Positions 3,626-54,350 of a DNA stretch of 64,000 nt are shown piece by piece. The stretch comes from Candidatus Methylomirabilota bacterium (GTDB lineage Bacteria; Methylomirabilota; Methylomirabilia; Rokubacteriales; DASRDR01): NCBI GenBank assembly GCA_036558225.1, contig DATBGA010000121.1:4076-68075 (forward strand), given 5' to 3'. The stretch's first letter is position 1. Each line of letters starts with the position of its first letter. The notes under the pieces are model-generated. The model had not been told where the DNA came from. It saw only the letters and a program-made list of their open reading frames with translations, and did not search any database. The position numbers and the translations under genes were made by a program.

Positions 3626-5122
3626 CTAGACGATGGTGGGCTTCGAGATGTTCTTGAGGAGATCCCGCGCGGTCGGCGACTGGTCCAGCAGCCGGCGCAC
3701 GAGCGCCTCGGTGCCCCGCAGCGGCTCCAGCATGAAGATCTTCTTCAGCGGTCCCTCCTTGAGGTCGAAGAGGACCGAGTCCCACGAGGCCGACACGATG
3801 TCCTCGGAGTAGCGCTGGAGACACATCCCTCGGAAGTACGCGCGGGTGTCGCGCGGGGGATCGTTGACCGCGCGGGCGATCTCCTCGTCGCTCGCGATTC
3901 GCTCGACCGCGTCGCTCTGCTCGAGCCGGTAGTAGAGACCCTTGCCGGGCCGGATGTCGTGGTACTGGAGGTCGATCATCGCCACCCGGGAGTCCGTCCA
4001 GCCCACGCCGTGCTTGGCCCGGTAGCTCTCGAGGAGGTCGAGCTTGATCACCCAGTCCAGCTCGCGATTGAGCGACATCGGATCCTGGGCGAGCCGGTCC
4101 AGCACGCTCTCCCATCGCACGAGGACGTCCTTCGTCACAGGGTCCAGCTCCCGGTCCCGGTAGTAGCGGTGGGCCGCCTCCAGGAACTCCCGCTGGAGCT
4201 CGACGGCGGTGGCGGTGCGCCCGTCGCGGAGGCGGAGCGTCGACCGGCAGGCCAGGTCGCGCGAGACCTGGCGGAAGGCCTGGACCGGATTGTCCAGCGC
4301 GAGATCCCGGTCGATGAAGTCGTCCTCGATCATGGAGAGGACGATCGACGTGGTCCCGACCTTGAGATAGTTGGCCACCTCCGACATGTTGGCGTCGCCC
4401 ACGATCACGTGGAGGCGCCGGTACTTCTCGGGGTCGGCGTGCGGCTCGTCCCGCGTGTTGATGATGGGGCGGGAATGCATCGTCTCCAGCCCGACCTCCG
4501 TCTCGAGGAAGTCGGCGCGCTGGGAGACCTGGTACTCGGTGTACTCGAGGTTATTCTCCGACCCGACCTTGCCCGCGCCGGTGAAGATCTGGCGCGTGAC
4601 CAGGAAGGGCATCATGTACTGGACGATCCGCGTGAAGGGGCAGCGGCGGTCCATGAGGTAGTTCTCGTGGGTCCCGTAGCTGTTGCCCTTGGAGTCGGTG
4701 TTGTTCTTGTAGATGAGGATGCGTTGCTCGGGCGGCGAGGCCGCCTCCGCCCGCCGGCGGGCGAGGTCGAGGACGCGCTCGCCCGCCCGGTCCCAGACGA
4801 CCAGGTCCCGCGGGTTGGTGCACTCCGGGGTGGAGTACTCGGGGTGGGCGTGGTCGACGTAGAAGCGGGCGCCGTTGGGTAGGATCAGGTTGATGAGGCG
4901 CGACTCCTCCTTGGACGGCAGCTCTTTCTCCTCGGCGTACTCGAACCCCCGGGCGTCCCTGAGCGGGCTCTCGGCCTCGTAGTCCCAGCGGATGCGCGCG
5001 GTCCGGTAGGTCTCGTAGGAGTTGATGAGGAGGAGCGAGGACAGGATCGGGTTGAAGTCCGCCTGGTTGCGGACGGTGATCCCGTACTCGGTCTCGATCC
5101 CCATCACCTTCGGGATGGCCAT
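3626..5122 (-). CDS. dop: Pup deamidase/depupylase Dop
   Basis: 498 aa and paralogous to pafA (MGIETEYGI, NGARFYVDHAHPEYSTPEC, GNSYGTHENYL). It carries the extra loop (...RWDYEAESPLRDARGFEYAEEKELPSKEESRL...) that distinguishes Dop from PafA. GAGGA lies 5 nt before the ATG. Confidence 0.85.
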   Translation of the reverse strand: MAIPKVMGIETEYGITVRNQADFNPILSSLLLINSYETYRTARIRWDYEAESPLRDARGFEYAEEKELPSKEESRLINLILPNGARFYVDHAHPEYSTPECTNPRDLVVWDRAGERVLDLARRRAEAASPPEQRILIYKNNTDSKGNSYGTHENYLMDRRCPFTRIVQYMMPFLVTRQIFTGAGKVGSENNLEYTEYQVSQRADFLETEVGLETMHSRPIINTRDEPHADPEKYRRLHVIVGDANMSEVANYLKVGTTSIVLSMIEDDFIDRDLALDNPVQAFRQVSRDLACRSTLRLRDGRTATAVELQREFLEAAHRYYRDRELDPVTKDVLVRWESVLDRLAQDPMSLNRELDWVIKLDLLESYRAKHGVGWTDSRVAMIDLQYHDIRPGKGLYYRLEQSDAVERIASDEEIARAVNDPPRDTRAYFRGMCLQRYSEDIVSASWDSVLFDLKEGPLKKIFMLEPLRGTEALVRRLLDQSPTARDLLKNISKPTIV

Positions 5123-22986: not shown

Positions 22987-24849
22987 GTGATGACCCGGTA
23001 TCCCCTCGCGGTCCGGCAGCGAGCCGTGCTCACGTTCGTGACGCTGAACGCCCTCGCCGCCGGGCTGCACGCGCAGCGGTTTCTGTTCGCGGAGAGCGCG
23101 CTCCCGTCCGGGCTGGGGCTCGAGTTCGCCGCGCTGGCGCTCCTCGCCCAGGTGGGCCTGGCGGCGCTGGTGATCCACGCCGTGCTGGGAGCGGTCGCGC
23201 TCGTCGACTCCCGGGCGCTCGTCACCGGCTTCCTCGCGGCGCTCACCTTCACGCTCCTCCAGACCTTCATCTACGTGGACGCGCGGATCTACGGCTTCTT
23301 CCGGTTCCACTTCAATGCGCTCGCGCTGAACGTGCTCTTCACGCCGGGGGGCTTCGAGTCGATGCAGCTCCCCGGGCGAGACGTCGCCATGGCGAGCGCG
23401 GGCATCGTCGTCCTCTTCGGTCTCGAGTTCCTCGGCTACGGGCTGCTCCTCCGGCGGGCCCGGGTCGCCACGTGGCCGGTCCGTCGCCGATGGCTCGCAC
23501 TCGTCGGCGTGACCCTCGGGCTGGTCCTGGCGGAGCGACTGACGTACGCGGCCAGCGATCTTCTGGAGATCCCCGGCGTGGCCCGCCAGGCGCGTCTGAT
23601 CCCGCTCTACGAGCCGCTCCGGCTGCGGCAGGTCCGCCAGCGCTTGCAGCTCCCGAGCGATCCCGGCGTCCGGTCCTCCGACCCCGGCGAGAGCGCCCTC
23701 GACTACCCGCGCGCGGCCGTGGTGGGGTCCGTCAGGGCCGATCACCGATGGAACGTGGTCTGGATCATGGTCGAGTCGTGGCGCTCCGACACGTTCACGG
23801 CCGAGAACACTCCGAACGTGTGGCGCTTTTCCCGGCGCGCCCAGGTTTTTCAGCAGCACCTCAGCGGCGGGAACTCGACGCGCTTCGGGATCTTCTCCGC
23901 GCTCTACGGCCTGCACGGGACCTACTGGTGGCCCGTCCTGGCCGAAGGGCACGGGCCCGTCATGCTCGCCAAGCTCGTCGAGGCCGGCTACCGGTTCCGG
24001 ATCCTGTCGAGCACCTCCCTCGGGTACCCGGAGTTCCGTCAGACCGCGTTCGTGTCGGTGCGGTCGTCGCTCACCGATCGCCTGCCGGCCGCGACCGTGG
24101 CCGAGCGCGACGTCCTCCAGGCTCGCGCGTTCCAGGAGTTCCTGGAGTCGACGCCGCGGGACGACGCCTTCTTCGCCTTCATGTTCCTCGGGGCGCCGCA
24201 CTTTCCCTTCCTGTTCCCGCCGGACCACGCGAAGTTCCTGCCGATCCTCGAGCAGCCCACCATCGCGCAGGCGCAGACGCCCGAGGGCGGCCGCCGGATG
24301 TACAACCGCTACCGGAACTCGATCCACTCCGTCGACTCGGTGATCGGGTCGATCCTGGACGCCCTGGAGCGGCGCGGGCTGCTCGACCGGTCGATCGTCG
24401 TGGTGACCGGGGACCACGGCCAGGAGTTCTACGAGCACGGGTTCTTCGGGCACGGCAGCGCGTTCACCCCGGAGCAGACGCACGTGCCGCTCGTCATGCA
24501 CGTGCCCGGGCTGCCCTTTCACGAGTACGGCCACCTGACGCAGCACCAAGACCTGCCGGCCACGATGCTCGCCCTCCTCGGGGTCGACGATCCTCCGGAG
24601 CGCTACAGCCTGGGCCACAACATGCTCGAGGGGCGAGAGCGGCCCTACGCCGTCGTGTGCGGCTTCCGGGAGTGCGCTCTCCAGGACCAGGAGGGCTGGG
24701 TCGTATTCGGCGTCGAGGGCAAGACCGCGCTGTCACTCGAGGCGCGCGACCGCGACTACGTCGAGGTCGGGGATCTCGCGACGGCCGTGAATCGGCGTCG
24801 TGACCGGCTCCTGGCGACCATGCAGGAGATGCGCGCGTTTCTCAGGTAG
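22987..24849 (+). CDS. Sulfatase-domain inner-membrane protein (YejM/LtaS-like)
   Basis: About five N-terminal TM helices are followed by an alkaline-phosphatase/sulfatase-like domain (VWIMVESWRSD, SGGNSTRFGIFS, VTGDHGQEF). Confidence 0.78.
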   Translation: MMTRYPLAVRQRAVLTFVTLNALAAGLHAQRFLFAESALPSGLGLEFAALALLAQVGLAALVIHAVLGAVALVDSRALVTGFLAALTFTLLQTFIYVDARIYGFFRFHFNALALNVLFTPGGFESMQLPGRDVAMASAGIVVLFGLEFLGYGLLLRRARVATWPVRRRWLALVGVTLGLVLAERLTYAASDLLEIPGVARQARLIPLYEPLRLRQVRQRLQLPSDPGVRSSDPGESALDYPRAAVVGSVRADHRWNVVWIMVESWRSDTFTAENTPNVWRFSRRAQVFQQHLSGGNSTRFGIFSALYGLHGTYWWPVLAEGHGPVMLAKLVEAGYRFRILSSTSLGYPEFRQTAFVSVRSSLTDRLPAATVAERDVLQARAFQEFLESTPRDDAFFAFMFLGAPHFPFLFPPDHAKFLPILEQPTIAQAQTPEGGRRMYNRYRNSIHSVDSVIGSILDALERRGLLDRSIVVVTGDHGQEFYEHGFFGHGSAFTPEQTHVPLVMHVPGLPFHEYGHLTQHQDLPATMLALLGVDDPPERYSLGHNMLEGRERPYAVVCGFRECALQDQEGWVVFGVEGKTALSLEARDRDYVEVGDLATAVNRRRDRLLATMQEMRAFLR

Positions 24850-25011: not shown

Positions 25012-26064
25012 ATGGCTCGAAGCGGCGAATTCAAGAAGGAAGCCGCGGAGCGGCTCCGCGGGCTCTTCCCGCAAGTCACTGAATGGCAAGAGTCGCTAGA
25101 TGCGACCGTCGGGGGCCAGACGGTGGATGTACTCGTCCGGTTCCAGATGGGGCAGGGGCAGGAGCCAAAGACCCTGATTTGTGAGACCCGCTCCCGGGGC
25201 GAGCCCCGGTACCTCCGCGAGGCCATCACCCGACTCCGCGAGCTCCGAACGCACCTGCCGGGAGCCTATCCGATCCTGGCCGCCCCCTACGTCACCCCCC
25301 AGTCGGCGGCTCTGGTCCGGCGGAACGGCTGCGGCTACCTGGACCTCGCCGGCAACTGCTACCTGGCGTTCGACAACGTCCTGATCCAGAAGGAGGGGCG
25401 CCCGAACGTCGCCCTAGTCCGGCGCCCGCTCAAGACCCTGTTCGCCCCCCGGGCGACGCGGGTGGTGCGGGCCCTCCTGGTGGAGCGGGAGCGGACCTGG
25501 CGGCTGGACGAGCTGGGGCGCGCCGTCGGCGTGAGCCTCGGCCATGCCCACAACGTGATCAAGCGGCTCGAGGAGCTGGACTGGGTCGAGCGGGGCCGAG
25601 ACGGACTGTATCGTCTTCCCCGTCCGGGCGACCTGCTCGACGCCTGGCGGGATGCGTACAGCTACCGCGTCAACGGGCTCAGCGCCTTCGTCTCCCCCGC
25701 GGGAGACAAGCGGCGGGTCATGGAGGCCCTGGCCCGGCACGCGACCGAGCTGGGCATGAGCTACGCGTTCACGCTTCACGCCGGCGCGTCCCTGATCGGG
25801 CCCCACACGCGCCTCCCCATGGTGCACGCCTACGTGAGCGGCGACACCGAGGCGCTCGTCCGGGTCCTGGGGCTCCAGCCGGTGGAGGGCGAAGGCTCGG
25901 TCTATCTCATGGCCCCGTACGATCCGGGTGTCTTCTACGCGCCCGTGATCAAGGGGGGATTCCGGGTGGTCAGTCTCCCGCAGCTCTACGTGGACCTCCA
26001 TGGTCACGAGCGGCGCGGGCGCGAGCAGGCGGAGAAGCTCCGTCGCGACGCGATGGGGTTCTAG
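25012..26064 (+). CDS. Hypothetical DNA-binding protein: PD-(D/E)xK-like N-terminus, winged HTH, AbiEi-like C-terminal domain (tentative)
   Basis: The start is set at Met25 of the listed ORF (MARSGEFKK). TVDVLV...LICETRS resembles a PD-(D/E)xK core. WRLDELGRAVGVSLGHAHNVIKRLEELDWVER is wHTH-like. The C-terminus ...VVSLPQLYVDLHGHERRGREQAEKL resembles AbiEi-type antitoxin C-domains. Domain calls are from memory, not a search. Confidence 0.7.
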   Translation: MARSGEFKKEAAERLRGLFPQVTEWQESLDATVGGQTVDVLVRFQMGQGQEPKTLICETRSRGEPRYLREAITRLRELRTHLPGAYPILAAPYVTPQSAALVRRNGCGYLDLAGNCYLAFDNVLIQKEGRPNVALVRRPLKTLFAPRATRVVRALLVERERTWRLDELGRAVGVSLGHAHNVIKRLEELDWVERGRDGLYRLPRPGDLLDAWRDAYSYRVNGLSAFVSPAGDKRRVMEALARHATELGMSYAFTLHAGASLIGPHTRLPMVHAYVSGDTEALVRVLGLQPVEGEGSVYLMAPYDPGVFYAPVIKGGFRVVSLPQLYVDLHGHERRGREQAEKLRRDAMGF

Positions 26065-26097
26065 CCGGGCTCACGGTGACGGAAGGAGGTGAATACG

Positions 26098-26133
26098 ATG
26101 GCGAAGAAGAAGGCGGCGAAGAAGAAGAAGTAG
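26098..26133 (+). CDS. Micro-ORF 1 encoding MAKKKAAKKKK (11 aa)
   Basis: ATGGCGAAGAAGAAGGCGGCGAAGAAGAAGAAGTAG is preceded by GGAGGTGA with a 5-nt spacer. It is identical to the copy 110 bp downstream and is not in the ORF track because it is too short. Confidence 0.5.
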   Translation: MAKKKAAKKKK

Positions 26134-26207
26134 TGCCCGAACGCGTCGTGCGAAGAGGGTGCAGCCCCTTCGCGGGACCAGCCCAAGATGGGGGGAGGTG
26201 ATGATCG

Positions 26208-26243
26208 ATGGCGAAGAAGAAGGCGGCGAAGAAGAAGAAGTAG
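26208..26243 (+). CDS. Micro-ORF 2 encoding MAKKKAAKKKK (11 aa)
   Basis: A 36-nt exact copy of micro-ORF 1 with the same GGAGGTGA SD (6-nt spacer). The flanking sequence is not conserved, so conservation is confined to the SD plus the ORF. Confidence 0.5.
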   Translation: MAKKKAAKKKK

Positions 26244-26303
26244 CGTGAGTGAGCGGGTCAGGGGACGATGCCAGCCCTGGCCCGGTGTGACGCGGTCAAC
26301 GCA

Positions 26304-26336
26304 GGCCGCCGGGGGCGACTGGCACCCCCGGCGGCC
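26304..26336. terminator. Perfect 12-bp GC hairpin between the micro-ORFs and rpmB (putative bidirectional terminator)
   Basis: GGCCGCCGGGGG-cgactggca-CCCCCGGCGGCC. It lies 5 nt beyond the rpmB stop on the minus strand. There is no clear U tract on either side. Confidence 0.4.
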
Positions 26337-26341
26337 GGTCC

Positions 26342-26533
26342 TCAGACGGCCTTGACGACCTTGCCCCCTCGCAGGCAGCGTGTGCAGACGCGGACCCGCT
26401 TGGCTCGGCCCTTCACGACCGCCCGCATCGACACCAAATTCGGCAGCCACCGGCGCGAGGAGACGTTGTGCGCGTGGCTGATCTGGTTGCCCACGACCGG
26501 GCCCTTCCCACACACATCACAGCGCTGGGCCAT
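26342..26533 (-). CDS. rpmB: 50S ribosomal protein L28
   Basis: MAQRCDVCGKGPVVGNQISHAHNVSSRRWLPNLVSMRAVVKGRAKRVRVCTRCLRGGKVVKAV (63 aa). The start is taken at the internal Met of the listed 100-aa ORF. Confidence 0.92.
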   Translation of the reverse strand: MAQRCDVCGKGPVVGNQISHAHNVSSRRWLPNLVSMRAVVKGRAKRVRVCTRCLRGGKVVKAV

Positions 26534-26679
26534 GCTCCTGGACTCCTCGGGAGAGATGGGGGTTCGGCGGCGCCGCGGCCCAGGAACGGGCCGGCTTGCC
26601 GCCGAGCAACGCACTTCTATACCATGGGGGCCGAGGTGAGACAAGCCTGGCGCCTCGGGCCGGCGCGGTCGTCCCTTCC

Positions 26680-28773
26680 GTGAATCCGGGCGCCAAGTCG
26701 CCCGCCGGCCTGGAGACGCCCCTCCAGTACCTCAAGGGGGTCGGGCCCCATCGGGCCCGACTGCTCGAGCGGCTCGGGCTCCAAACGGTCCGGGACGCGC
26801 TGAATCACTTCCCGCGCGACTACCAGGACCGCCGGACGTTCGTGCCGTTCCACAAGCTCGCGCTCGGGGAGGCGGCCCTCGTGCACGGGACGGTGTTCGG
26901 CGTCGCTCCGCCCCGTCACGGGTCTCGTGCCCCGATTCAGGTGACCTTCCGCGACCAGGTGGGATACTTTACCGCGCTCTGGTTCGGCAAGGCCTTTCTC
27001 GCGCATACGTTCAAGCGGGACCAGCGGGTCGTTCTCTACGGGAGGAAAACCCTCGCCAAGGACCGCCGAGTCGTCCTCGACAACCCCGACTTCGAGATCG
27101 TCGAGGACGACGAGTCGGCGTCGATCCACATGGGCCGCTTTGTACCCGTCTACCCGCTCACCGAGGGCTTGCTCCAGCGCGCCTTGCGGACATTCCTGCA
27201 CCAGATCGTCGTGGCGCGCGCCGATGAGGCCCCGGACATCCTGCCGGAGGAGCTCCGTCGCCGTCGGGAGCTCCTGCCGGTCGCGGCGGCCTATCGGACA
27301 GTGCACTTCCCGGAGCGCCTGGAAGACGTCGAGGCAGCGCGTCGGCGCTTCGCGTTCGAGGACTTCTTCGTCCTGCAGGTGGGCCTCGCCCTGAAGCGCC
27401 GGCGGCAGGCCCGGGAGCACGGGCGTTCCCTCGCGCCCCCCGGCGAGCTGGTCGCGCAGCTCCGCCGGGCGCTGCCGTTCGCCCTCACGTCCGCCCAAGA
27501 GCGCGTCTGGTCCGAGATCCGGTCGGACCTGGCGCGGCCGGTGCCCATGAACCGTCTCTTGCAAGGCGACGTGGGGTCCGGCAAGACGATCGTCGCCGTA
27601 ATGGCGCTCCTCACGGCGGTGGAGGCCGGGTGCCAGGCGGTGCTCATGGCGCCGACCGAGATCTTGGCCGAGCAGCACGTCCGCACCCTGCGGAGCCTCG
27701 TGGAGCCGCTCGGGCTGACGGTGGCGTGGCTCTCCGCGGGTCAGCGGGCGCGGGAGCGGCAGGCCGCCCTCGAGGCCCTCCGCAGCGGCATCGCCGCCAT
27801 CGGTGTGGGGACTCATGCCCTCATCCAGGAAGCCGTGGAACTTCAGCGGCTCGGCCTCGCCGTCGTCGACGAGCAGCACCGCTTCGGCGTGCTCCAGCGC
27901 GCATCTCTCCGCGGCAAGGGAGAGCACCCGCACGTGCTCGTGATGACGGCGACACCGATTCCTCGGACGCTCGCGTTGACGCTCTACGGCGACCTCGACG
28001 TTTCCGTCCTCGACCAGCTTCCGCCCGGGCGGACGCCGATCCGGACGGACGCGCGCTACGAGCCGGCCCGGGAGAGGATCTACGACTTCGTGCGGAGCGA
28101 GCTTCGGGCTGGACGACAGGCGTACGTGGTCTGCCCGCTCGTCGAGGAGACCGAGGCGAGCGACCTCAAGGCCGCGACCGAGATGGCCGAGCGCCTCGGC
28201 GCGGGCCCGTTTCGGGACTTCCGGGTCGGCCTCGTCCACGGCCGCCTCGGGTTCGACGCGAAGGACGCCGTCATGCGCGCATTCAAGACTGGGGAGATCG
28301 ACCTCCTGGTCGCCACGACGGTGATCGAGGTCGGGATCGACGTCCCCAATGCCTCCGTGATGCTGATCGAGCACGCCGAACGCTTCGGCCTGGCCCAGCT
28401 CCACCAGCTCCGCGGCCGTGTGGGTCGCGGCGCGGCCAAGTCCTTCTGCATTCTTCTCGAGAGCGGTCCCGCGTCCGAGGAAGCGAGGCAGCGACTAGCG
28501 GCCATGGTCGAGACCCAGGACGGCTTCCGACTCGCCGAGGTCGATCTGAAGATCCGCGGGCCCGGCGAGTTCTTCGGGACGCGGCAGTCGGGCCTCCCGG
28601 AGTTCCGCACCGCGAGCCTCGTGACCCACGTGCGGCTCCTCGAGGAGGCGCGGCAGGACGCCCTGCAGCTGGTCCACCGTGACCCCGGGCTGCGCCTGCC
28701 CGAGCACCGCGCTCTGCGCGAGGCTCTCGTCGCCCGCTGGCGCGAGCGCCTCGAGCTGGCGTCGATCGGATAG
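26680..28773 (+). CDS. recG: ATP-dependent DNA helicase RecG
   Basis: It has LQYLKGVGPHRARLLERLG, a wedge/OB region, GDVGSGKT, DEQHRFG and QLRGRVGRG. The start is uncertain (GTG 26680 preferred; the listed ATG is at 26596). Confidence 0.9.
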   Translation: MNPGAKSPAGLETPLQYLKGVGPHRARLLERLGLQTVRDALNHFPRDYQDRRTFVPFHKLALGEAALVHGTVFGVAPPRHGSRAPIQVTFRDQVGYFTALWFGKAFLAHTFKRDQRVVLYGRKTLAKDRRVVLDNPDFEIVEDDESASIHMGRFVPVYPLTEGLLQRALRTFLHQIVVARADEAPDILPEELRRRRELLPVAAAYRTVHFPERLEDVEAARRRFAFEDFFVLQVGLALKRRRQAREHGRSLAPPGELVAQLRRALPFALTSAQERVWSEIRSDLARPVPMNRLLQGDVGSGKTIVAVMALLTAVEAGCQAVLMAPTEILAEQHVRTLRSLVEPLGLTVAWLSAGQRARERQAALEALRSGIAAIGVGTHALIQEAVELQRLGLAVVDEQHRFGVLQRASLRGKGEHPHVLVMTATPIPRTLALTLYGDLDVSVLDQLPPGRTPIRTDARYEPARERIYDFVRSELRAGRQAYVVCPLVEETEASDLKAATEMAERLGAGPFRDFRVGLVHGRLGFDAKDAVMRAFKTGEIDLLVATTVIEVGIDVPNASVMLIEHAERFGLAQLHQLRGRVGRGAAKSFCILLESGPASEEARQRLAAMVETQDGFRLAEVDLKIRGPGEFFGTRQSGLPEFRTASLVTHVRLLEEARQDALQLVHRDPGLRLPEHRALREALVARWRERLELASIG

Positions 28774-52812: not shown

Positions 52813-53472
52813 CTACTTCGGCTGCGGCACGATCCGGATGTAGGGCTTCGGCGACTTCCAGCCGGCCGGGTACTTCTCCTTGGCCTCGGCGTCGGAGACC
52901 GTCCCGCTGATGATCACGTCGTCGCCCTGCTTCCAGTTGACGGGGGTCGAGACCTTGTGCTTCGCCGTCAGCTGGCAGGAATCCAGGATCCGCAGGACCT
53001 CGTCGAAGTTGCGGCCCGTGCTCATCGGATAAGTCAGCATCGCCTTGATCTTCTTGTCGGGGCCGACGACGAACACCGACCGGACGGTCGCGTTGTCGGC
53101 GGGGGTCCGGCCCTGAGACGTGGTGCCGGCCGCCTCGGGCAGCATGTCGTAGGCCTTCGCCACCTTCAGCTCAGGGTCGCCGATCAAGGGATAGGTGACG
53201 GCGTGTCCCTGGGTCTCCTCGATGTCCTTGGACCACCGCTGGTGGTCGTTGACCGGGTCGACGCTGAGGCCGAGGATCTTGCAGTTGCGCTTGTCGAACT
53301 GCGGCTTCAGTCCGGCCATGTAGCCGAGCTCGGTCGTGCAGACCGGCGTGAAGTCCTTCGGGTGCGAGAACAGGATGGCCCAGCCGTTGCCGATCCACTC
53401 GTGGAAGTTGATGGGGCCCTGAGTGGTCTCCGCGGTGAAGTTGGGGGCGTCGCCGTTGATGCGCAGTGTCAT
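52813..53472 (-). CDS. 1-Cys peroxiredoxin (Prx6-type)
   Basis: APNFTAETTQGPINFHEWIGNGWAILFSHPKDFTPVCTTELG. GGAGGTGA lies 5 nt before the ATG. Confidence 0.92.
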   Translation of the reverse strand: MTLRINGDAPNFTAETTQGPINFHEWIGNGWAILFSHPKDFTPVCTTELGYMAGLKPQFDKRNCKILGLSVDPVNDHQRWSKDIEETQGHAVTYPLIGDPELKVAKAYDMLPEAAGTTSQGRTPADNATVRSVFVVGPDKKIKAMLTYPMSTGRNFDEVLRILDSCQLTAKHKVSTPVNWKQGDDVIISGTVSDAEAKEKYPAGWKSPKPYIRIVPQPK

Positions 53473-54350
53473 TGGGTCACCTCCGGTTAGAGAGAGTTTG
53501 GCCAGCTCGACCCGGTACGAGGCGGCGGGTGCCCCGTCGTGCGTCGTGCGCCCTCACGCGGCCCGCAGGCGCGCGTGAGGAAGCGGACCCACCCGAGCCG
53601 AGCGAAACACGGTCTCCTGGGGCGTCAGCACCAGCTCGTAACGGCCGGGCATGCGGTCCAGGGCGTCGTGCACGATACCGAGGACGCGCGATACCACCGC
53701 CGGCCGCTCGAACGGAACGGCCATCTTGATCTGCCAGGGGCCCCAGCAGCCTTTGTGAACGAACGAAGCGACCACCGCGTCGACTCGCGCCCGACCGCGT
53801 AGGTCAGCCGGATCTGCCGGCTCACGACCGCCGCCCGCCTCCGATCTCGCCACGCAGTGAAGGCGGGAAGGGCCACGAGCGACAGCAGCGGGGGAAAGGC
53901 CACCACGGCGGCGGCCATTCGCGCGAGCCGATCCGCCCCCTTCAAGGCTGAGGACCCCGGATGCCCCGACGACACACAGTCATTCTACGTCAGGCACCCC
54001 ACGGAAGTCCGGGGCGCGATCGACCCAATCCAAGCGCTCTGCTCGTCTTCTCCTCCTCTATTGATGGACGTTTCGAGGCTGCGGGTCCCGTCGGCCGCGG
54101 GCGGCGTCCCGGTGCCGGGCGCGGCGGGCGTCCGACGGCTCGAAGGAGCCTCGGCTAGCGAGCGCGGGACAGGGCAAGCGACATGCCATCCGACAGGCCA
54201 ATGAAATCGAGATGTTGCGCGTGGCCCACGATCGCGTGGTCGCGGCGGTCCCGTGAGGCGCGGGGCGGCGACGCGGACGAGCGCGACTAGGGGCGCGGCG
54301 ATGACGCTCGACCAGGCCATCCAGTGGAGGATGCCCGACGGGGAGGGGAG

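Follow-up and report, generated by a model that had tools for sequence, protein, structure and literature searches.

Two identical open reading frames (ORFs) of 11 codons, each encoding MAKKKAAKKKK, lie in tandem between a gene for a winged-helix (wHTH) protein and the convergent rpmB gene in the 64,000-nucleotide stretch of a Candidatus Methylomirabilota genome analysed here (contig DATBGA010000121.1, positions 4,076 to 68,075; hereafter the window). Comparison with related loci gives us high confidence that these micro-ORFs are translated genes selected for their peptide. The fuller reading, in which they are genes of an oligolysine micropeptide with a polyanion-binding role, is probable overall and less so for any specific target.

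This reading is carried mainly by the way the locus varies among relatives. Many metagenomic contigs encode the exact L28 protein of the window, and nine of them were obtained with DNA. All nine have the same gene order and both micro-ORFs, with the peptide invariant; substitutions inside the ORFs fall only at the third positions of Ala codons (GCG to GCC or GCA), and the spacers carry many substitutions and indels, with a start-to-start period of 108-121 nt (69-121 nt across the phylum). Per-column diversity among 18 main-group Methylomirabilota sequences, the sample behind all site-class figures given here, was 0.000 for the Shine-Dalgarno (SD) motif and 0.367 for the spacer between SD and ATG. 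Within the micro-ORFs it was 0.005 at codon position 1, 0.000 at codon position 2, 0.251 at Ala third positions and 0.000 at Lys third positions, and the stop codons, where TAG and TAA interchange, gave 0.141; other spacers ranged over 0.31-0.41. Gaps inside the micro-ORFs occur in runs of 3 nt only. Judged from these alignments, the pattern of variation is that expected of a translated sequence under purifying selection.

The tandem arrangement itself is maintained. Loci with a single match to our search pattern (described below) hold a second SD-led copy of slightly different length (MAKKKAAKKKKK, MAKKKKAAKKKK, MAKKKAAKKKKKK or MKKKAKKKKK), and therefore the tandem pair is conserved across the phylum, including a subgroup with unalignable flanks, at lengths of 10-13 residues. 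The pair is still present in the most divergent relatives, where homologues of the upstream protein are 57-60% identical. Copy 2 in this divergent group reads MAKKKAAKKKKK in loci L239-L242 and MAKKKTKKKKK in L237 and L238, and copy 1 (in L237, L239 and L240-L242) reads MAKKKAKKKKKC, MAKKRATKKKKKGKR or the 22-residue MATKRRAAKKKAAPKRKKKGKR, giving a K/R-rich range of 12-22 residues. The paralogues of these divergent Methylomirabilota evolve asymmetrically, the first having expanded to 12-22 residues and the second remaining at 11-12. Arg stands in place of Lys in divergent copies, together with some Gly, Pro and Thr, and hydrophobic or acidic residues are absent. Since Arg replaces Lys there, the conserved property, as read from the encoded peptides, is positive charge, and not the Lys codons or an AAG-repeat RNA motif. 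The predicted object of selection is the polycationic, non-hydrophobic character of the peptide.

An initial annotation of the window, made from its letters, had described the repeat and its surroundings, and on re-examination this description holds. The 36-nt string ATGGCGAAGAAGAAGGCGGCGAAGAAGAAGAAGTAG occurs exactly twice, on the + strand (Table 1). Allowing up to three mismatches adds no match in the window, and 100 shuffles contain none; the perfect repeat extends over 38 nt, which comprise the micro-ORF and the CG just before it. Both ORFs have the perfect SD that had been reported, the bulged hairpin and the perfect 12-bp hairpin are present as claimed, and the pair adjoins the AbiEi-like wHTH gene (with a 33-nt gap) and rpmB. 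A second conserved hairpin, after ORF2, is added here to the earlier description. Perfect GGAGGTGA octamers number five in the 64 kb, two of them before the micro-ORFs, one before a peroxiredoxin-like gene and two within coding sequence. The ribosome-binding sites of the micro-ORFs are of the strongest class present in the window. The peroxiredoxin-like gene (MTLRINGDAPNFTAETTQGPINFHEWIG..., window 53465-53484, - strand) is the sole other gene start in the window with a perfect octamer, and the distribution of the octamer suggests that it marks highly translated genes in the window organism.

Table 1. Features of the window at and around the micro-ORF pair (aa, amino acids).
Feature	Coordinates	Strand	Basis or comment
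YejM-like sulfatase gene	22987-24849	+	
Upstream gene, 350-aa winged-helix (wHTH) / AbiEi_2-like protein	25012-26064	+	
SD 1, GGAGGTGA, 5 nt before ATG1	26085-26092	+	read directly
Micro-ORF 1, MAKKKAAKKKK and stop	26098-26133	+	coding-type conservation
Hairpin 1, GCGAAGAGGG / CCCCTTCGC, one bulge	26150-26173	+	RNAalifold consensus; conserved among orthologues
SD 2, GGAGGTGA, 6 nt before ATG2	26194-26201	+	read directly
Micro-ORF 2, MAKKKAAKKKK and stop	26208-26243	+	coding-type conservation
Hairpin 2, GGGTCAGGG, 11-nt loop, CCCTGGCCC	26255-26283	+	single-sequence fold and RNAalifold consensus
Perfect 12-bp GC hairpin, between ORF2 and the rpmB stop codon	26304-26336	.	likely terminator of both transcripts
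rpmB (L28), convergent	26342-26533	-	
recG	26596-28773	+	

The unit that is duplicated is small. The flanks of the two copies had been reported as unlike, and the regions downstream of the stops indeed resemble each other only at the shuffled level (z ~0 in 11 genomes). A larger repeat unit of SD, ORF and hairpin, considered because the hairpin loops look alike by eye, was rejected on the same local alignments of downstream flanks against shuffles; as these flanks are not alike, the paralogous copies share SD and ORF only. Three overlapping frames were also considered as coding, namely a poly-Glu frame (26076-26201), a poly-Arg frame (26188-26355) and a 150-residue antisense ORF (26061-26513), and all were rejected, the start codon not being conserved and the spacer changes being non-multiples of 3. 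The antisense ORF, moreover, cannot explain the conservation, as the initial annotation had argued, because it reads the two copies in different frames and the period varies over 108-121 nt in close relatives. At the orthologous loci L005 (3348-3473) and L006 (3242-3343), which correspond to window positions of about 26061-26300, automatic gene callers place spurious genes of 41 and 33 residues and miss the micro-ORFs; the public annotation of the orthologous intergenic region is misleading.

The initial annotation had proposed searching related genomes for the unit, and SD plus ORF is found across the Methylomirabilota, in 2-3 copies per genome, with conservation that does not extend to the flanks of the copies. 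The additional copy lies at a second locus. Eight metagenome-assembled genomes (MAGs) with the tandem locus also carry a single extra copy on another contig or region (tandem and extra loci L012 and L014, L040 and L063, L055 and L075, L058 and L072, L019 and L023, L036 and L099, L076 and L100, L049 and L085), and one of these eight encodes the same L28 as the window. Most of these extra copies encode MAKKKATKKKK; one encodes MAKKKAAKKKK and another MAKKKAKKKKK. In all, nine loci are of the second type; they include L079, whose MAG gave no tandem-locus match. In every one of the nine, a TTGACA-N17/18-TAGCAT promoter lies 36-62 nt upstream of the ATG and is followed by an SD of the GGAGGTGA type, the ORF and a strong downstream hairpin, in that order. 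The hairpin is GGAGGCCCCGC...GCGGGGCCTCC with a short T tract in seven, and has a different stem in L079 and L085. The neighbours are unlike those of the window, being a divergent B12/radical-SAM gene and an EamA transporter gene. With these predicted signals, the micro-ORF at the second locus forms a transcription unit of its own, for which an RNA of roughly 150 nt is predicted. Directly 5' of the terminator stem, 14-16 nt past the stop of the micro-ORF, seven of the nine loci (L014, L023, L063, L072, L075, L099 and L100) have an anti-SD-like CACCTC, which is CAACTC in L014. This motif could pair with the GGAGGTG of the unit and loop the mini-mRNA, with autoregulation or stabilisation as possible outcomes.

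Beyond the phylum, the peptide M-A-KKK-xx-KKKK-stop was back-translated into the pattern ATGGCNAARAARAARNNNNNNAARAARAARAARTRR, and a scan of one genome per GTDB species returned 108 matches at 97 loci. The matches in high-GC genomes are almost all from Methylomirabilota (Rokubacteria). Others come from DPANN archaea (Woese-, Pace-, Nano-, Aenigm- and Micrarchaeota), from bacteria of the Candidate Phyla Radiation (CPR; Saccharibacteria, Nealsonbacteria, Wildermuthbacteria, Levybacteria and Minisyncoccales), and from single MAGs of Brocadiales, Planctomycetales, Eisenbacteria, Eremiobacterota, Goldbacteria, Acidobacteriota, Spirochaetia and others. A true stop ends 106 of the 108 matches, none of the 42 high-GC matches has the TGG ending that the pattern permitted, and no match forms the end of a long reading frame. 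Of 103 matches, 73 are preceded by an SD-like motif, as compared with 8.6% of all ATGs in the same loci, and all 206 residues at the two free positions are A, K, T, G, S, N or P, where 38-50% would be expected. Where genomic GC is below 40%, 55% of the Lys codons in the micro-ORFs are AAG, as compared with 25% in neighbouring genes, and the longest A-run in the micro-ORFs is about 6, as against about 10 expected; such short runs are consistent with the avoidance of slippery A-runs in a frame that matters. Because several of these signals (stops, SD, free positions and codon choice) were not imposed by the pattern, they show that the putative genes matched in other phyla are not chance hits.

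The expression signals around these matches are those of the host lineage. In DPANN archaea a B recognition element (BRE)/TATA element about 50 nt upstream is followed by an AGAGGTG SD; a TATA-like motif at -59 to -40 is seen in 37-40% of matches per 10-nt bin (5-6% at random positions), and 28 of 35 have an oligo-T tract after the ORF (25% at random). The CPR micro-ORF sits between murB and either secA or speD (next to speD in seven CPR loci), and an intrinsic terminator follows it in 17 of 20 cases (6% at random). By their predicted promoters and terminators, the CPR and DPANN mini-genes are autonomous expression units.

Two control scans help to delimit the family. On viral contigs (IMG/VR), the real pattern gave 10 matches and a composition-matched pattern with the codon order reversed gave none. 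The viral matches (L107-L116) were considered as family members and rejected, since nine of the 10 are Lys-rich C-terminal tails of longer phage ORFs without SD; they serve as a contrast. On one IMG/VR contig, L112, the copy stands alone and a terminator comes after it, as in the CPR. When residue 2 was freed as well, a scan of metagenomes gave mainly low-complexity noise, from which the matches with Ala at residue 2 stood out: an SD preceded 11 of these 23 and 12 of the 98 others (p=4e-4), and small or Lys residues occupied the free positions in 19 of 23 and 44 of 98, respectively (p=1e-3).

Some of these loci have features of their own. In 11 CPR loci (L031, L035, L037, L054, L062, L065, L069, L078, L086, L088 and L092) a conserved hairpin without Rfam match lies between murB and the micro-ORF, 28-90 nt before the latter. 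It consists of (C/G)AAATAG, a loop ending in GUCGA and then CUAUUUG, with compensatory changes (GCGAATAG/CTATTCGC in L035 and L088; GTCGAAT variants in L054, L065 and L092), and could be a murB terminator, a 5' untranslated-region element or a protein-binding site. In one woesearchaeotal locus (L044:2660-2731, - strand), and in that locus only, a second GGAGGTGA-led ORF for an acidic peptide of 23 residues, MKLHLMSDWDDEDEYQDEDYDFD, begins 16 nt past the basic micro-ORF, and a polycation/polyanion pair is possible. An uncultured archaeon (L010:4977-5036, - strand) has, 11 nt past MAKKKAAKKKK, an SD-led ORF for MAKKKKTTKKKSSCCSCCR, with a Lys-rich head and a Cys-rich tail. In the Eremiobacterota loci L070 (oriented 4504-4557) and L105, the SD precedes the first ATG of a 17-residue variant, MPAKKKMAKKKAAKKKK, of which the 11-mer is the C-terminal part.

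At the window locus, the RNAalifold consensus of the 18 sequences contains three hairpins, which are the three listed in Table 1. Hairpin 1 has a diversity of 0.15, as against 0.3-0.4 in spacers, hairpin 2 has 0.10, and the 12-bp GC hairpin, nearly invariant in the main group, has 0.017. The changes within stems are mostly wobble and few are compensatory, and the region as a whole does not fold better than its shuffles (z = -1.6). The predicted hairpins begin 16 nt past the ORF1 stop and 11 nt past the ORF2 stop. No conserved alternative (antiterminator) pairing appears in this consensus fold, which is a prediction. The Rfam 15 covariance models match nowhere in the window and overlap no micro-ORF in 18 related loci, and the window contains no tRNA. 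Upstream of ORF1, no sigma70-like promoter for the pair is found in 257 nt by a consensus scan, by TTGAC-N16-19-TAGCAT or by a looser 9-of-12 scan, and because of this the pair is probably transcribed with the wHTH gene.

The identity of that gene deserves some caution. Its 350-residue product matches the Pfam families HTH_IclR (21.8 bits) and AbiEi_2 (21.6 bits, cut-off 21), both borderline, and has 1264 homologues, of which the best 120 are of about 348 residues; some databases label such homologues 'AbiEi family antitoxin'. NCBIfam gives no match for the protein, PADLOC gives no AbiE match for the gene but a single weak one outside AbiE (PDC-M05A, E=0.003), and between 26064 and rpmB there is no ORF of the AbiEii type (DUF1814 nucleotidyltransferase). 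An assignment to the AbiE defence system was rejected on these grounds and because the gene is a syntenic chromosomal gene phylum-wide. The micro-ORF pair begins 30-41 nt past the wHTH stop (33-34 nt in the main group) in all 18 Methylomirabilota cluster loci and in the homologues at 57-60% identity, the first copy lying 41 nt past it in L240-L242. The block of sulfatase, wHTH, micro-ORFs, rpmB and recG is syntenic. In L237-L242, the gene before wHTH encodes a Zincin_1 (PF06262) protein of 117-126 residues instead of the sulfatase, and is preceded in L237 by relA/spoT; owing to this replacement, the invariant linkage is limited to wHTH, the micro-ORFs and then rpmB or recG.

From these features a simple mechanism can be proposed. 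Each ORF would be translated from its perfect 8-nt SD and ATG, in the window from the 3' end of the wHTH mRNA, with a conserved hairpin after each ORF and a transcript end at the GC hairpin held in common with rpmB. Methionine aminopeptidase would be expected to remove Met before Ala, which would leave a product of ten residues, AKKKAAKKKK, carrying about +7 net charge. A charge-only constraint, the lack of hydrophobic or acidic residues, multiple copies and strong initiation signals all agree with a product needed in bulk, that is, a free intracellular polycation which would be highly expressed and required in high copy number. Its target would most likely be a polyanion, either ribosomal or other RNA and the ribosome, or nucleoid DNA.

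The initial annotation had offered three possibilities, namely a translated polycationic micropeptide, Lys-codon-sensing upstream ORFs (uORFs) and a peptide partner of the upstream DNA-binding protein. The first is favoured by the codon-position pattern, the whole-codon indels, the interchange of stops, the Lys-to-Arg changes and the promoter-to-terminator mini-genes found elsewhere. As cis-regulatory leaders or uORFs, Lys-rich mini-ORFs would sense Lys-tRNA or stalling and act on a gene further downstream through attenuation or translational coupling. Lys accounts for seven of the 11 codons, as in textbook attenuator leaders such as hisL, and a hairpin follows each ORF; the CPR order is ORF, terminator and then secA or speD on the same strand, and at the second Methylomirabilota locus the EamA transporter gene starts about 115 nt downstream. 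Nevertheless we consider regulation of this kind unlikely, as the window has no + strand cistron after the pair, only hairpin 2, the 12-bp terminator and the convergent rpmB, and the gene that comes next in DPANN, at a distance of 20-50 nt, is frequently encoded on the other strand. The CPR secA has a -10-like TAAAAT, seen by eye in four loci (L037, L054, L065 and L092), just past the terminator, and the consensus fold offers no conserved antiterminator pairing. Divergent copies, furthermore, exchange Lys for Arg, Gly or Pro and yet keep their charge, the non-Lys positions are limited to small or polar residues, for which a codon sensor has no need, and elsewhere the micro-ORF is a promoter-to-terminator unit. 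A partnership with the wHTH/AbiEi_2-like protein, in which the peptide is co-expressed with it and serves as its co-factor, modulator or toxin-like component, seems equally unlikely. The close linkage in 18 of 18 cluster loci and in the most divergent homologues, together with the lack of a separate promoter before ORF1, agrees with it, and a polycation could plausibly modulate DNA binding. For the window locus, this part of the earlier proposal is possible but weak. A general function of this kind is precluded by the independent third copy, whose promoter is its own and whose neighbours are the unrelated B12/radical-SAM and EamA genes, and by the loci in CPR, DPANN and other phyla, which have no such neighbour. 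The linkage may moreover be mere inherited gene order in a block that is syntenic as a whole, no AbiEii-type nucleotidyltransferase is present, and the AbiEi assignment is borderline.

A role at the RNA level appears very improbable. Hfq binds A-R-N repeats at its distal face, and each copy contains (AAG)3 and (AAG)4, which are perfect A-R-N repeats (at least three consecutive triplets); with the exposed SD these could make a protein- or ribosome-binding RNA, or a sponge, in which the ORF is incidental. Lys third positions are invariantly AAG in the main group and conserved hairpins flank the AAG tracts. However, unlike that of an Hfq-type element, the conservation of the micro-ORF depends on the reading frame: variation is confined to Ala third positions and TAG/TAA, indels are of whole codons, and the ATG, the stop codon and the SD spacing are kept. 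Arg, Gly and Pro codons supplant AAG in divergent copies, AAA and AAG mix freely in AT-rich genomes, and Rfam has no match. If the peptide is the functional product, a target other than RNA, ribosome or nucleoid is a further alternative, in which it would neutralise polyphosphate or acidic membrane lipids, take the place of polyamines, or be directed at other cells as a cationic peptide with an antimicrobial or host-interaction role. A charge-only constraint would suit any polyanion, and the occurrence in episymbiotic CPR and DPANN and the adjacency to speD in seven CPR loci are suggestive. We nonetheless find such roles improbable, as a signal peptide is lacking and neither an exporter nor an immunity gene is linked, free-living Methylomirabilota with large genomes carry the most copies, and the speD linkage is confined to part of the CPR.

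Several points weigh against the polyanion-binding micropeptide that we prefer. For all organisms concerned, the case for translation is built from sequence, and the polyanion target is inferred from charge and copy number alone. The invariant AAG at Lys codons could be a sign of constraint on the RNA. No linkage to ribosomal-protein operons was found, rpmB being convergent, and around the DPANN and other low-GC loci 74 flanking proteins matched 75 different Pfam families, none of them present in more than five loci and no ribosomal-protein family among the 25 listed. The scan pattern fixed the peptide in advance and thereby created part of the synonymous variation seen between phyla; it did not prescribe the SD, the stop codons, the residues at the free positions or the promoter and terminator signals. 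Eleven low-complexity residues are too few for a test of homology, and the DPANN and CPR mini-genes may be convergent. The 22-residue variant MATKRRAAKKKAAPKRKKKGKR has no match at E<=10 in Pfam, NCBIfam or PDB sequences, tools for which the 11-mer is too short.

These negative searches bear equally on novelty. The initial annotation knew of no described family with this sequence, and we likewise found no match in Rfam and, in the literature searched, no paper with the exact peptide string and none describing a MAKKKAAKKKK-type peptide. The general kind, tiny basic peptides from overlooked ORFs, is already known. What is new is the size of 10-13 codons, the near-pure Lys/Ala composition, and the tandem and multi-locus copies recurring in Methylomirabilota, CPR and DPANN.

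Among known systems, the small basic ribosomal proteins are the closest in character. Protein bL37, of 24 residues, occupies an rRNA pocket, is restricted to Actinobacteria and was identified only by fitting small ORFs into unexplained cryo-electron microscopy (cryo-EM) density, and bS22, of about 33 residues, is a small basic ribosomal protein of Actinobacteria and Bacteroidota that was also found by cryo-EM (PMC5876184). The micropeptide resembles both in being very short, strongly basic, lineage-restricted and encoded by small ORFs that routine annotation overlooks, and its 22-residue variant falls in the same size and composition class. It differs from them in showing no detected sequence similarity, in having half their length or less, in consisting nearly entirely of Lys and Ala, in its 2-3 copies per genome, and in being known from genes alone that lie outside ribosomal-protein operons. 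Thx (bTHX of Thermus) and eL41 (eukaryotes and archaea) are K/R-rich ribosomal peptides of 25-27 residues in rRNA pockets. They too are tiny polycations, and eL41 offers a precedent in archaea; but they are Arg-rich, contain Trp or Tyr, are single-copy and have no sequence match to the micropeptide. Like all four proteins, it is encoded by a tiny K/R-rich ORF that has translation signals and is conserved within a lineage.

Other comparisons are less close. The attenuator leader peptides hisL, trpL, thrL and pheL likewise have a short ORF with a strong ribosome-binding site, codons dominated by one amino acid and a hairpin after; the window micro-ORFs, however, have no downstream operon and no antiterminator was found, and in other lineages the micro-ORF is a unit from promoter to terminator and Lys-to-Arg change is tolerated. 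Repeats of AKK or AAKK are familiar from the C-terminal tail of mycobacterial HupB, chlamydial Hc1, the 29-residue protamine-like Tpr of E. coli and histone H1 tails. Their Ala/Lys-only composition and AKKK/AAKK periodicity, which suits binding to a nucleic-acid backbone, recur here, although all of them except Tpr are domains of larger proteins, and here one repeat unit is the whole product. AbiE is a type IV toxin-antitoxin system of the antitoxin AbiEi and the nucleotidyltransferase AbiEii. The wHTH domain and the borderline AbiEi_2 match recall it, but at this locus micro-ORFs occupy the position of AbiEii, PADLOC has no AbiE match and the upstream gene is syntenic phylum-wide.

If the findings are taken at their widest, the micro-ORFs could belong to an as yet undescribed family in which conserved, stand-alone protein-coding genes reach their smallest size, of 10-13 codons grading to 22 and spanning Methylomirabilota, CPR, DPANN and other candidate phyla, whose product is a stoichiometric polycation of the ribosome or nucleoid missed by gene callers and tryptic proteomics; we advance this only tentatively, as a possibility with somewhat more against it than for it. 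Genes of 11 codons lie under every annotation threshold and a Lys/Ala peptide is destroyed by trypsin, and for these two reasons standard genomics and proteomics would overlook a conserved, multi-copy gene of this kind. For so short an ORF the signal from comparison is exceptionally clean, and the mini-gene design recurs with lineage-appropriate signals in the reduced genomes of CPR and DPANN, where dispensable DNA is scarce. There is a substantial chance that the micropeptide is a new cellular component. It offers concrete targets for ribosome cryo-EM and non-tryptic peptidomics of enrichment cultures, such as those of Methylomirabilis, anammox Brocadiales and Saccharibacteria co-cultures. 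If it turns out to be a component of the ribosome or nucleoid, or a polyamine-like one, the core machinery of several major uncultured lineages would gain a new part, and a new lower size limit would be set for conserved protein-coding genes.

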